Assembly (NCBI GenBank): GCA_965209055.1
Contig: OZ242374.1
Coordinates: forward strand, 2,336,001-2,400,000
From: Acidobacteriota bacterium
Lineage (GTDB): Bacteria > Acidobacteriota > UBA6911 > RPQK01 > JAJDTT01
Reading direction: 5' to 3'
Length of the DNA: 64,000 bases
Under the pieces are notes generated by a model. The model ran no database searches and was not told the DNA's origin. It saw only the letters and a program-made list of their open reading frames with translations. Made by a program: the position numbers and the translations under genes. Positions 2 to 4,354 of this stretch are shown piece after piece; the stretch's first letter is position 1, and each line of letters begins with the position of its first letter.

Positions 2-2005
2 GCGTTGGTGGAGGCCCGGGACGAGGTCTTCATCCTGGCTGCCGATCTGGTCCCCCGCGTTTCCAAGGAGTGCGATCTGGGCGACTACCGGATTCTGGGA
101 CGCCTGCGGGGCGCTGCCCTCGGCGGTCTCGAGTGCCGGCACCCATGGCTACCGCGCCGGTCCGCGGTCGTATTCGGGACTCACGTCACGCTGGACCAGG
201 GCACCGGCGTGGTCCATACGGCACCCGGACACGGAGAAGAGGACTACCGCCTGGGGGTCGACAACGGTCTCGAAGTGTATTGTCCGGTGGACGATTCGGG
301 CCGGTTCCTGCCGGAGGTGGATCACTTCGGTGGCATGCCCGTGTTCGAGGCCAACCCTTCCATCAACGCCCTTATGGCCCGGGAAGGCCATCTGGTCCGG
401 GAAGAGCCGTTCCGGCACAGCTATCCTCATTGCTGGCGCTGTCACAACCCGGTCATTTTTCGCGCCACGGCGCAGTGGTTCATCAGCATGGACCGGGAAG
501 ACCTTCGCGGCCGGGCCCTGCGCGAGATCGCCAGGGTGAAGTGGCTTCCGTCCTGGGGCCGGGAGCGGATCCACAACATGATCGCCACCCGGCCGGACTG
601 GTGTATCAGCCGGCAGAGAACCTGGGGTGTTCCGATCATCGCCTTCTACTGCAGGGCCTGCGCCAAGATCCTTTTGGAGAGCGGCATCATCGAGCATGTA
701 TCGCGCATCTTCGAGCGGGAGGGAGCCGACGCCTGGTACCGGAGGCCCGCGTCGGAGCTTCTCCCGAAGAACACCCGTTGCGCCTGTGGAAGCGAAGAAT
801 TCGAGAAAGAAAAAGACATATTGGATGTCTGGTTCGACTCGGGGGTCAGCCATCACGTGCTGCGGGAAACGCCGGGACTCGATTGGCCCGCGGATCTCTA
901 CCTGGAGGGTGGAGATCAGTTCCGGGGCTGGTTTCACAGTTCCTTGCTGGTCGGGGTCGGCGTCAGCGACGGAGCTCCCTACCGGTCGGTTCTGTGCCAT
1001 GGATGGACGCTGGATGCCGAGGGGAAAGCCATGTCCAAGTCCCGGGGCAACGTCATTTCTCCGCAGGACATCACCAAGCGGGACGGCGCCGAGATCTTGC
1101 GCCTCTGGGTTGCGTCCATCGACTACACCGAAGACGTCCGTCTGGGGGAAGAGATTCTTTCCCGACTCCGGGACGCCTACCGCAAGCTGCGAAATACGAG
1201 CCGCTTCCTCTTGGGCAACCTTCACGACTTCTCTCCGGAAATGGCAGTGCCGGACGAGGAACTGCTGGAGTTGGATCGTTGGGCTCTGGCCCATACCGCC
1301 GCCACGGCACGGCGGGTGGAGGAGGCCTACCGGAATTTCGAGTTTCACACCGTCTATCACTCCCTGTACCACTTCTGTGTGGTGGGGCTTTCCAGCTTTT
1401 ATCTCGACGTGCTGAAGGATCGCCTCTACGTCTCGGCGGCCGATTCCACGGAACGAAGGTCGGCCCAGACGGCCCTGTTCCGGATCGCGGACGCATTGGT
1501 CCGGCTGCTGGCTCCGATCCTGCCCTTTACCACCACCCAGATCTGGGAAGAGCTCCACGGCCGGAATCCTCCCGCCGAGTCGGTCCACATGGCCGAGTTC
1601 TCCCGGGAGCTGGACCGTCATGAGGACCCCGAGCTCCTGGAGCGGTGGGAGCCGCTCCTGCGGATCCGCCACCAGGTCAGCAAGTCACTGGAGGAATGCC
1701 GCCAGCAGAAGCTCATCGGGAATTCCTTGGAGGCGTCGGTCAGGATCGAGGCCGGCGCGGAGACTTGCCGGTACCTCAGCCGGTATGCGGACGATCTGGC
1801 CACCGTCTTCATCGTCTCCGAGGTCGAGATCGGACTGAGGGAGGACTTGGCGGGGGATGAGACGCGGATCGAGGTGACCCGAACCCAGGCGGAGAAATGC
1901 GCGCGGTGCTGGAACCATCGGCGCTCGGTGGGGACCGATGCCGATCTGCCGCACGTCTGCTCCCGTTGCCGCACGGTGCTGGAACGGATCGGCGCCCTCG
2001 ATTGA
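2..2005 (+). CDS. ileS: Isoleucine--tRNA ligase (5'-truncated by window edge)
   Basis: GTGVVHTAPGHG editing motif, DWCISRQRTWG, DVWFDSG, KMSKS-like KAMSKS, C-terminal CxxC...CxxC zinc finger; followed by lspA as in the usual ileS-lspA arrangement. Confidence 0.97.
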   Translation, partial: ALVEARDEVFILAADLVPRVSKECDLGDYRILGRLRGAALGGLECRHPWLPRRSAVVFGTHVTLDQGTGVVHTAPGHGEEDYRLGVDNGLEVYCPVDDSGRFLPEVDHFGGMPVFEANPSINALMAREGHLVREEPFRHSYPHCWRCHNPVIFRATAQWFISMDREDLRGRALREIARVKWLPSWGRERIHNMIATRPDWCISRQRTWGVPIIAFYCRACAKILLESGIIEHVSRIFEREGADAWYRRPASELLPKNTRCACGSEEFEKEKDILDVWFDSGVSHHVLRETPGLDWPADLYLEGGDQFRGWFHSSLLVGVGVSDGAPYRSVLCHGWTLDAEGKAMSKSRGNVISPQDITKRDGAEILRLWVASIDYTEDVRLGEEILSRLRDAYRKLRNTSRFLLGNLHDFSPEMAVPDEELLELDRWALAHTAATARRVEEAYRNFEFHTVYHSLYHFCVVGLSSFYLDVLKDRLYVSAADSTERRSAQTALFRIADALVRLLAPILPFTTTQIWEELHGRNPPAESVHMAEFSRELDRHEDPELLERWEPLLRIRHQVSKSLEECRQQKLIGNSLEASVRIEAGAETCRYLSRYADDLATVFIVSEVEIGLREDLAGDETRIEVTRTQAEKCARCWNHRRSVGTDADLPHVCSRCRTVLERIGALD

Positions 2006-2063
2006 AGCCGGGAGCGATGGGAGAGGATATCCTTCGGAGGCCTTTGGCGCGGTGGAGAAGACG

Positions 2064-3353
2064 ATGAAACTCGTGGCGCTGGGAGTGGCGGCGACGGTGC
2101 TGGCGCTGGATCTCCTCACCAAGTGGTGGGTCAAGAGCACGCCTTGGCTGCACTACCACAAGGTGGTCGATGGATTCTTCGCCATCCACTTCGTCCGCAA
2201 TGAGGGCATTGCCTTCGGCCTGTTCCATTCCAATCCGTCGGCGTGGAAACCGGTGATCCTTTCCGTCCTGGCCGTCGCGGCGGCGGTCATGGTGTTGTAT
2301 TACATCTGGACCAGCCCTCCCGAGGAAAGAGGCGTCCAACTGCTCATGGGGCTCCTGTTGGGAGGGATCCTGGGGAATTTCTGCGACCGGCTGTGGCGTG
2401 GGTATGTCGTCGATTTTCTGGATTTTCATTGGCAGGACCGTTTCGCCTGGCCGACCTTCAATCTGGCCGATGCCGCAATCACCTGCGGAGTCGCGGTGAT
2501 TCTCTACCAGGGCTTTTTCGGAGCGGGCAGCGGAGACCGGGCATCGAGCCGGCCCAGCCGGAAAAACTCCGGCTCTTTGGGCGCGTTTCTCCTGGCGGGA
2601 CTGCTCTCGGCGCCCCTGTTGGGAGAATCGGCCTCTCCCGGCGCGCTGGAAATCGTGGACCGGGTCCAGGCCCGGTACGATCGGGTCGAAAGCTTCTCCG
2701 CCGATTTTCGGCAGGTCTTCCAATCGCAGGGGGTCTTTTTCGAAAGCGACTGGGGCGAGGGGGTCCTGCTGATGAAGCGCCCTGGAAAAATGTACTGGGA
2801 GTACCGGCGCCCCACCAGGAAGCTGTTCGTGGCCGACGGCAAGCAGACCTTCTTCTACGTCCCCGGCGAGAACCAGGTGACGATCGCCGACCTGGACCCG
2901 GAGACTGCGGATACGCCGCTGCTTTTCCTGCTGGGACCCAAACGGATCCGGGACGATTTCATGGTGGAGTTCGAAACCGGGGAAGGACCGTTGGACGAAT
3001 CCAACCTGCTCCTGCGGTTGACGCCCGTTCAGGCCCGGCCTGAATTCAGCTATCTGCTCTTGGAGCTGTCCTCCCGGACCTGGCTCATCCAGAGATTGTC
3101 CGTAATCGAGCCCATCGGTAATCGCAACGACTACATCTTCAGCCGTTTCCGGGAGAACGTCACGATTCGGGACAAACAGTTCCGCCTGGAGTTGCCGGAT
3201 GGAGTGGAGATCATCCGAATCGGATCCGGCGCCGGCCGGAGGCCGGACGGGGAGCCCGGCCGGTTTCTTCATCGCAGCGGGATCGAGACCGCGCTGGAGT
3301 TCACAGTCCGTGACGACTTTTGCCGCGGTCGGTTAAGGAGAGTGCCCAGTTGA
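2064..3353 (+). CDS. lspA: Fusion: lipoprotein signal peptidase II (N-terminal ~155 aa) + internal signal-like helix + LolA-family outer-membrane lipoprotein carrier
   Basis: LspA motifs DLLTK, NEGIAFG, GGILGNFCDR, GYVVDFL, PTFNLAD; LolA motifs KRPGKMYWEY, FVADGK, FYVPGENQV, FRLELPDGVEII; one frame with no stop; ATG 2064 preceded by GGAG. Confidence 0.88.
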   Translation: MKLVALGVAATVLALDLLTKWWVKSTPWLHYHKVVDGFFAIHFVRNEGIAFGLFHSNPSAWKPVILSVLAVAAAVMVLYYIWTSPPEERGVQLLMGLLLGGILGNFCDRLWRGYVVDFLDFHWQDRFAWPTFNLADAAITCGVAVILYQGFFGAGSGDRASSRPSRKNSGSLGAFLLAGLLSAPLLGESASPGALEIVDRVQARYDRVESFSADFRQVFQSQGVFFESDWGEGVLLMKRPGKMYWEYRRPTRKLFVADGKQTFFYVPGENQVTIADLDPETADTPLLFLLGPKRIRDDFMVEFETGEGPLDESNLLLRLTPVQARPEFSYLLLELSSRTWLIQRLSVIEPIGNRNDYIFSRFRENVTIRDKQFRLELPDGVEIIRIGSGAGRRPDGEPGRFLHRSGIETALEFTVRDDFCRGRLRRVPS

Positions 3354-4354
3354 GCGAAATTCGGGCGAACATAACGGCCGTGGGGATGTACGTTCCGGAG
3401 AAGCGCGTCACCAACCACGACTTGAGCCGGGTACTGGAAACTTCCGACAAGTGGATTCGAGAGCGAACCGGGATCTCGGAGCGCCGAATCGTCGGCAAGG
3501 ACGAGGCGAACAGCGATCTCTCGGTTCGAGCCATCCGAGACGCTCTGGATGGCACGCCACATCGTCCTGAAGACATCGATCTCATCATCGTCACCACCGT
3601 CACGCCGGACATGATGTTTCCTTCGACCGCTTGCCGGATCCAGGAGAAGATCGGGGCCACCAACGCGTGGGGGTTCGATCTTTCCGGGGCCTGCTCCGGA
3701 TTCCTTTTCGGCCTCTCGACGGCTGCGCAGTTCATTCGGACGGGGACCCACAAGAAGGTCCTTGTGGTGGGAACCGATGTGATGAGCTCCATCATCGACT
3801 TCGAGGACCGGGCCACCTGCGTGCTCTTCGGAGACGGCGCCGGGGCGGTCCTCCTTGAGCCCACCGAAGAGGAGGATGTCGGCATCCTGGACGCGACCCT
3901 GGGATGCGACGGGTCAGGAGGCAAGTTCCTGTACATGCCGGCCGGAGGGAGCCAACGCCCGGCAAGCCATGAAACCGTGGACAAGCGGATGCACTATGTC
4001 CATCAGGACGGGAGGAACGTCTTCAAGTTCGCGGTTCGGGTCATGTGCGACACTTCCGTCGGATTGCTCCGGCGAAACGGCATTCCCACCGATCAGCTTT
4101 CCCTGTTCGTCCCCCATCAGGCCAACATGCGAATCATCAAGTCGTCCATGTCGCGCCTGAAACTGGGCGAGGAACAGGTTGCCGTCAACATCGACCGCTA
4201 CGCCAACACGACGGCGGCGACCATCCCCACCTGTCTGGCGGAAGCTCACCGGCAGGGACGACTGAAGAAACGGGACAAAGTCCTCATGGTCTCCTTCGGA
4301 GCGGGATTCACCTGGGGAGGCATTCTGCTCGGCTGGGGAATGGATCCGCCGTAA
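3350..4354 (+). CDS. fabH: 3-oxoacyl-ACP synthase III
   Basis: ACSGF catalytic Cys, VLFGDGAGA, PHQAN His, YANT Asn, FGAGFTWG; TTG start after TAAGGAG, overlapping the upstream TGA. Confidence 0.95.
   Translation: MSEIRANITAVGMYVPEKRVTNHDLSRVLETSDKWIRERTGISERRIVGKDEANSDLSVRAIRDALDGTPHRPEDIDLIIVTTVTPDMMFPSTACRIQEKIGATNAWGFDLSGACSGFLFGLSTAAQFIRTGTHKKVLVVGTDVMSSIIDFEDRATCVLFGDGAGAVLLEPTEEEDVGILDATLGCDGSGGKFLYMPAGGSQRPASHETVDKRMHYVHQDGRNVFKFAVRVMCDTSVGLLRRNGIPTDQLSLFVPHQANMRIIKSSMSRLKLGEEQVAVNIDRYANTTAATIPTCLAEAHRQGRLKKRDKVLMVSFGAGFTWGGILLGWGMDPP

Follow-up and report, generated by a model that had tools for sequence, protein, structure and literature searches.

A conserved lspA-lolA gene fusion in Acidobacteriota with a putative internal signal peptide

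The lspA-lolA gene and its two halves

Within the window (the whole 64,000-nucleotide stretch of contig OZ242374.1, assembly GCA_965209055.1, from an Acidobacteriota bacterium) a single gene on the forward strand joins lspA, which encodes signal peptidase II, to lolA, which encodes a lipoprotein carrier. This lspA-lolA fusion occupies positions 2064-3353 (+) and reads in translation as one stop-free frame of 429 codons plus the stop codon TGA. An earlier note on this DNA had described one uninterrupted frame holding a full LspA with the catalytic motifs GYVVDF and FNLAD, a basic stretch RASSRPSRK, a hydrophobic stretch and a full LolA. Translation and the Pfam and NCBIfam families confirmed both halves; Asp117 and Asp136 were located in the two motifs, and the basic and hydrophobic stretches fall at residues 159-167 and L172-L186. 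A structural model of the protein was obtained with AlphaFold2 (AF2), built on an alignment of 31 fusions. The features of the gene are listed below.

2064..3353, + strand: whole lspA-lolA fusion (stop-free translation; Pfam and NCBIfam families match)
2064..2522, + strand: residues 1-153, the LspA half (signal peptidase II of peptidase family A8) with its four membrane helices (Pfam, NCBIfam, AF2, PDB matches)
2412..2414, + strand: presumed catalytic Asp117 (GAT) in GYVVDF (sequence; invariant in aligned fusions)
2469..2471, + strand: presumed catalytic Asp136 (GAT) in FNLAD (sequence; invariant in aligned fusions)
2535..2576, + strand: predicted cytoplasmic basic loop D158-S171 (R159, R163, R166, K167), equivalent to a signal-peptide n-region (sequence)
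2577..2621, + strand: hydrophobic core L172-L186, LGAFLLAGLLSAPLL, putative retained LolA h-region and fifth membrane segment (position, length, AF2)
2622..2642, + strand: c-region and predicted start of mature LolA, G187-G193 GESASPG, with candidate signal peptidase I sites after G187 and S189
2643..3221, + strand: LolA domain, residues 194-386 (Pfam, NCBIfam, AF2, PDB matches)
3222..3350, + strand: C-terminal tail, residues 387-429, predicted disordered, genus-specific and of varying length

The LspA half is complete, with both aspartates present, and is predicted to cleave diacylglyceryl-prolipoproteins. Peptidase_A8 (PF01252) matched residues 9-152 (E 4e-38, 131.2 bits against a cut-off of 25), and the lspA equivalog model TIGR00077 scored 113.3 bits, above its curated cut-off of 73.95. 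The closest solved LspA structures by sequence were PDB entries 9emz and 5dir (E 2e-18). Asp117 and Asp136, which correspond to the catalytic dyad of LspA structures, were invariant in 31/31 aligned fusions, as were the LspA motifs. In the AF2 model, helices were predicted at residues 2-25, 62-83, 89-112 and 134-152 and strands at 31-46 and 115-132; the predicted local distance difference test (pLDDT) values of this block were mostly 74-95, with a minimum of 63 at residues 51-60. A profile search of the genome returned the fusion as the sole PF01252 match. At the DNA level, the FNLAD-coding stretch 2447-2483 was common to contigs of other organisms in the sequencing runs X1, X5 and X7, and depth spikes and loose ends flanked it on both sides. 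The sharing reflects how well the LspA motif is conserved even in DNA sequence, and not a repeat in this genome.

The LolA half is also complete and is predicted to carry lipoproteins. LolA (PF03548) matched residues 207-375 (E 1e-25, 90.9 bits against a cut-off of 23.6), the lolA equivalog model TIGR00547 scored 123.3 bits (cut-off 112), and the solved LolA structures 2w7q (E 2e-16), 1iwl (E 3e-10) and 8orn were matched by sequence. The model predicts a LolA-type fold, an N-terminal helix followed by strands between residues 211 and 386, with pLDDT mostly 78-92 and dips to 59-60 at 221-230 and 281-290. As the fusion was the sole PF03548 match in the profile search, its LolA half is the only canonical LolA of the genome. 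Behind the domain, residues 389-429 had pLDDT values below 50, the 10-residue blocks from 391 on lying at about 29-35. The tail ranges from 13 to about 145 residues within the genus, while relatives outside the genus mostly stop a few residues past the LolA domain (many after 2, and about 17 in the sister-genus group). A direct repeat of about 55 residues was observed in the tails of the relatives P0008 and P0017, and one X7 contig has 11 other letters in place of 3287-3333, in the tail region.

The start of the gene and its neighbours were read from the same sequence and are given in the following lines.

2054..2057, + strand: GGAG, Shine-Dalgarno-like, 6 nt before ATG 2064 (read from sequence)
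2..2005, + strand: ileS, 3' part, open frame to 2005 upstream of the fusion (identity judged from translation)
3350..4354, + strand: fabH-like gene, downstream, likely start TTG 3350 (open reading frame list and sequence)

A longer alternative frame from ATG 1938 runs into the end of ileS, whose stop lies at 2003-2005, and a start there is unsupported by homologues (P0002 has 429 aa). We take the frame at 2..2005 to be ileS in its usual neighbourhood with lspA, on the basis of its translation and of the common ileS-lspA operon. On the downstream side, TTG 3350 overlaps the fusion stop (TGA, 3351-3353) as TTGA and has AAGGAG upstream at 3335-3340; this codon, and not TTG 3320 or ATG 3386, is probably the true start of the fabH-like gene. 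The name FabH and the choice of start are our assumptions from reading the translation.

Reality and spread of the fusion

The lspA-lolA fusion is genuine, inherited, conserved and lineage-restricted. Contigs of run X1, which is possibly the source sample, span 2000-3400 with 0 differences, and in run X5, which belongs to a different study, a contig of 33.6 kb spans the same stretch with 13 substitutions and 0 gaps. No insertion or deletion was listed over 2000-3400 in any of the four runs compared. The earlier note had reckoned with a stop or an indel in the reads at the junction; neither was found, the independent contig being free of gaps. DNA runs labelled as sponge metagenome (X5, X6 and X10) also contain the stretch 2000-3400, and the organism, or a strain close to it, seems to live in communities associated with sponges.

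Relatives of the fusion were taken from a collection of 5.8 billion proteins as hits of 235-751 aa. Both Pfam domains were present in 94 of the 98 relatives, with identities from 96% down to 40%. The earlier note had also allowed for close relatives that all carry lspA and lolA apart and share no conserved linker; instead, fusion and linker are kept across these 94 proteins. The six hits named by organism were all from metagenome-assembled genomes of Acidobacteriota and were annotated "signal peptidase II", and four hits had been named "lipoprotein signal peptidase/chaperone LolA" by the Joint Genome Institute (JGI). Among the weak hits, P0097 (695 aa) combines tRNA-synthetase domains with Peptidase_A8, and P0099 (456 aa) combines Peptidase_S41 with Peptidase_A8. 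Of 401 Acidobacteriota genomes sampled, 16 have the single open frame, as read directly in each: all six genomes of the own genus, both of the sister genus, and six and two from two further families of the order.

The linker and its origin

The linker follows the n-h-c layout of a signal peptide: a polytopic part is succeeded by the basic loop, in which RASSRPSRK lies, then by the 15-residue core and a c-region of small residues. In LspA structures the C-terminus of the enzyme is cytoplasmic. The earlier note had proposed that an extra helix places LolA in the periplasm, and this topology agrees with the secondary structure of the AF2 model, in which a 15-residue helix was predicted at 171-185 with low confidence. 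Over the whole linker (155-190) pLDDT was 42-53, and below 50 at 155-170. The predicted template modelling score (pTM) of the whole fusion was 0.48; the model has no fixed pose and no predicted interface between LspA and LolA.

We compared the linkers of 95 fused proteins with the N-termini of 82 stand-alone LolA proteins. The core of the fusions occupies the position of the signal peptide in the stand-alone proteins, and in both sets few residues separate it from the conserved first LolA helix. Core length (15 residues here) had a median of 14 and an interquartile range of 12-15 in the fused and the stand-alone proteins alike, and over the 10 residues ahead of the core the net charge had a median of +1 in both. 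Because the core occupies the stand-alone signal-peptide position before the first LolA helix, the internal helix is, as judged from sequence, the signal peptide kept from a lolA that was once a gene of its own. According to the abstract of PMC2120157, it is chiefly the length of the hydrophobic stretch that sets signal peptides apart from signal anchors. Core length was tried here as such a discriminator and rejected, as the control failed (LspA transmembrane helices 1-4 score 12-19).

In the c-region of this linker only G187/E and S189/A (the slash marking the cut) satisfy a simple -3/-1 rule; S191 falls in the alignment column that most often holds a small residue in the fused as well as the stand-alone set, but is followed by Pro. 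A site satisfying the rule was present in 81 of 95 fused and 73 of 82 stand-alone proteins. In a narrower window, 76 of the 95 fusions had a site against a mean of 67.4 in shuffled sequences, a value of 76 being reached in 2 of 200 shuffles; for stand-alone LolA it was 69 against 52.8, reached in 0 of 200. Many fusions outside the genus carry textbook sites such as VNA/S, VRA/Q and LNA/Q. Processing of the linker by LspA itself at a lipobox was rejected, since the linker in the window has no Cys; Cys occurs in the c-region of a few relatives only (P0036, P0089, P0096), outside any lipobox-like context.

Sixteen split loci, in which lolA directly follows lspA, were read from further families within the order and the class. 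In 10 of the 16 the end of lspA and the beginning of lolA share an ATGA, a single in-frame stop separates the genes in two (G327 and G063), and the remaining loci have a short overlap or gap. A Shine-Dalgarno-like 4-mer precedes the lolA ATG in 6 of 12 split loci. Outside the class, lspA and lolA are usually found on different contigs. Stand-alone LolA proteins (93 hits, 38-73% identical to the LolA half in the window) have ordinary N-terminal signal peptides, and many fusions keep a Met just before the core. The split pairs of G393, G385, G190 and G112 share the gene order of the fusion, with LspA 51-59% and LolA 41-47% identical, and their LolA signal peptide is located where the fused linker sits; they have a stop and a start of their own, whereas the frame in the window is continuous.

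Because close sister families carry separate adjacent genes, the fusion is best read as a lineage-specific derived state, with the split pair as the predicted ancestral one. A small frame or stop change would have joined a translationally coupled lspA-lolA pair. In a FastTree tree of LolA domains, fused and split states required 9 changes against a mean of 61.7 after shuffling, which is strong clustering; many forks of this tree are open and its well-supported branches force only 2 changes. One clade of 49 rows was all-fused, and two rows scored as "split" within the genus clade were fragments. Long matches in Myxococcus were tried as further LspA-LolA loci and rejected, being tandem lspA-lspA genes followed by an lgt-like gene, with no LolA part; it was their LspA motifs that had brought them up. 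At locus L063, 2797-4065 (Myxococcus sp. Y35), the lspA paralogues encode 208 and 212 aa; L072, L074, L082, L088, L091 and L093 are similar, and the lgt identity was judged from translation.

The lipoprotein pathway and the fate of the fusion protein

The other genes of the lipoprotein pathway were searched in the genome, which consists of one contig of 6.08 Mb and is 98.4% complete. A lnt gene is present, together with two lgt-like genes scoring 136.7 bits (above the cut-off of 118.9) and 115.8 bits (just below it). One lolC/E-like permease gene (317.7 bits, just under the cut-off of 362) adjoins a lolD-like ATPase gene, after lysS, and two signal peptidase I genes were found (TIGR02227, 167.9 and 165.7 bits against a cut-off of 47). 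Profile searches of the genome gave no match to LolB and none to DUF2092. Three LolA_like (PF17131) genes lie elsewhere in the genome, two of them identical copies.

G000:C1:5986798-5987553, strand not stated: lgt-like gene (136.7 bits)
G000:C1:4155232-4155948, strand not stated: lgt-like gene (115.8 bits)
G000:C1:120208-120759, + strand: LolA_like (PF17131) of a pair, 209.7 bits, in a 477-aa open frame
G000:C1:534744-535295, - strand: LolA_like (PF17131) of the same pair, 209.7 bits, in a 477-aa open frame
G000:C1:5594145-5594690, - strand: third LolA_like (PF17131), beside an FtsX-type permease gene pair

From the lgt-like gene at 4155232-4155948 it is about 18 kb to the lolC/E-like gene and about 38 kb to lnt. 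The identical scores of the PF17131 pair, which stands on opposite strands about 414 kb apart, suggest a duplicated segment, and the place of the third gene beside the FtsX-type permease pair suggests that it belongs to another system. With a single lolC/E-like permease gene beside a lolD-like one and no LolB match, this genome resembles LolDF-type or LolB-less pathways. Such pathways, with a possibly bifunctional LolA, are discussed in parts of PMC9963962, PMC11784454 and PMC13575116; neither the fusion nor Acidobacteria occur in the searched passages of PMC9963962 and PMC11784454.

The earlier note had left two outcomes for the fusion protein, a polyprotein cut by signal peptidase I or a membrane-tethered LolA, and these are still the two live readings. 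We consider it fairly probable that the product is a polyprotein which signal peptidase I cuts into a five-helix LspA and a free LolA. Translation as a single chain and, above all, cleavage at the linker are what we infer from the sequence. The fusion would be translated as one polypeptide, of which the four LspA helices would insert into the membrane while the basic loop behind them would stay in the cytoplasm; the old LolA signal peptide would insert as a fifth segment, its C-terminal end outside, and thread LolA into the periplasm. Signal peptidase I, for which the genome has two genes, would then cut after the short c-region. The freed, soluble LolA would shuttle lipoproteins from the single-permease transporter (LolC/E-like plus LolD-like) to the outer membrane, and the spent signal peptide would stay on LspA as its fifth helix. 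Such a fusion would fix synthesis of the two proteins at 1:1 and would couple the export of LolA to the insertion of LspA into the membrane. A free LolA would be needed because the genome has only this canonical LolA, LolB was not found in it, and a LolA held at the inner membrane would be unable to reach the outer one.

In described systems LspA and LolA come from unlinked or separate genes, and LolA moves freely as a shuttle once its N-terminal signal peptide has been cleaved off. Canonical LspA (5dir, 9emz, 6ryo) and LolA (1iwl, 2w7q) match the two halves by sequence, and the halves pass the equivalog models; the canonical pair, however, is two proteins, while the gene in the window encodes one chain. 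The mechanism proposed for LspA-LolA is that of FbcH, the cytochrome b-c1 polyprotein of Bradyrhizobium japonicum, in which a polytopic membrane protein, an internal signal peptide and a periplasmic protein form one chain and are separated by signal peptidase. The proteins joined in the two chains are unrelated and belong to different pathways, and while cleavage of FbcH has reportedly been shown experimentally, that of LspA-LolA is a prediction.

Several observations weigh against cleavage, or at least do not speak for it. The enrichment of -3/-1 sites over shuffled sequences is weaker in the fused proteins than in stand-alone LolA, and 14 of the 95 fusions have no site that satisfies the rule. 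In the own genus the c-region is poor, as S191 precedes Pro and a site at A190 mostly has E, K or Q at -3. The length metric gives medians of 13, 19, 14 and 12 for LspA transmembrane helices 1 to 4 and so does not tell a signal peptide from a membrane helix, and the stand-alone set used for comparison is uneven, being dominated by one 212-aa family. The single metatranscriptome contig, of 165 nt, covers 2364-2528 only and is silent on the product.

In the other live reading LolA would be permanently tethered, the fifth segment being an uncleaved anchor and LolA working at the inner membrane next to LspA. There it would take or pass on new lipoproteins without leaving the membrane, and delivery to the outer membrane would fall to another carrier or a contact site. 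We regard this as possible but doubtful. The weaker enrichment of sites and the 14 fusions without one are in its favour, as are the core of 15-16 residues and the poor -3/-1 residues in the c-regions of the own genus. The fusion has moreover been kept over deep divergence, down to 40% identity, with an all-fused clade of 49 rows, and the three PF17131 genes could in principle supply other carriers, though the one adjoining the FtsX-type permease pair points to another system. Against a permanent tether, the few residues between core and LolA fold would keep the domain from reaching the outer membrane. The genome moreover has no other canonical LolA, and no LolB was found in it; textbook cleavage sites (VNA/S, VRA/Q, LNA/Q) occur in many of the fusions from outside the genus, and the AF2 model (pTM 0.48) shows no interface between LspA and LolA. 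For the own genus at least, an uncut segment would mean a LolA anchored beside LspA that takes lipoproteins after removal of their signal peptides, with no diffusing shuttle; we hold this to be rather unlikely.

A further possibility is that ribosomes restart at TTG 2577, as they would in ATGA-coupled ancestors, and make a separate LolA precursor, the fusion being a by-product. This TTG is the codon of L172 at the start of the core, it is kept as TTG in 6/6 genomes of the genus while nearby codons vary synonymously, the corresponding codon is ATG in P0002 (96% identical), and in many of the fused relatives a Met comes directly ahead of the core. The earlier note had seen no Shine-Dalgarno sequence at TTG 2577 and had pointed out that a start there drops the basic n-region, and the sequence bears out both statements: no Shine-Dalgarno-like 4-mer precedes it (at -18 to -5 here), which holds for 5/6 genomes of the genus, and all basic residues of the n-region would be lost. 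In addition, the position of codon 172 is Trp in P0005, the linkers of the fused genes in G250 and G336 lack ATG, GTG and TTG altogether, and the in-frame read-through product would be made in any case. Internal initiation is thus unlikely, and as the source of a separate LolA precursor we would give it very little credit.

It is hardly credible that two normal genes were joined through an error of sequencing or assembly or through a disabling mutation of recent date. One-base changes at ATGA overlaps are easily made and one relative was called in two pieces (P0081 and P0182, both listed with a 10,761-nt longest contig), but the contig of the independent study has 0 gaps, the uninterrupted frame recurs in 16 genomes from four groups and in 94 clusters of the database, the catalytic and core residues are invariant, and the genome has no second lspA or lolA to take over.

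The fusion has been picked up by automatic annotation and, as far as we found, is not described in print; it is the arrangement, not the halves, that is unusual. The literature found contains no description of an LspA-LolA fusion, in agreement with the earlier note, which knew of none; supplementary files, in which such architectures are possibly listed, lay outside the search. Since the genes are mostly named only "signal peptidase II", lolA looks absent in surveys of gene content, which makes the fusion an annotation trap.

LspA and LolA act in the same essential pathway and are treated as physically unconnected steps; the fusion shows that one chain is possible. It offers a test case for whether bacteria use internal signal peptides to obtain both a membrane enzyme and a periplasmic carrier out of a single polypeptide. 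If the protein is simply cleaved, the biology would be ordinary, and the gene a clear example of an ATGA-coupled pair becoming a polyprotein. If it stays uncleaved, it would be a test of LolA working without diffusing, and a LolA that acts as an anchored module would be surprising.

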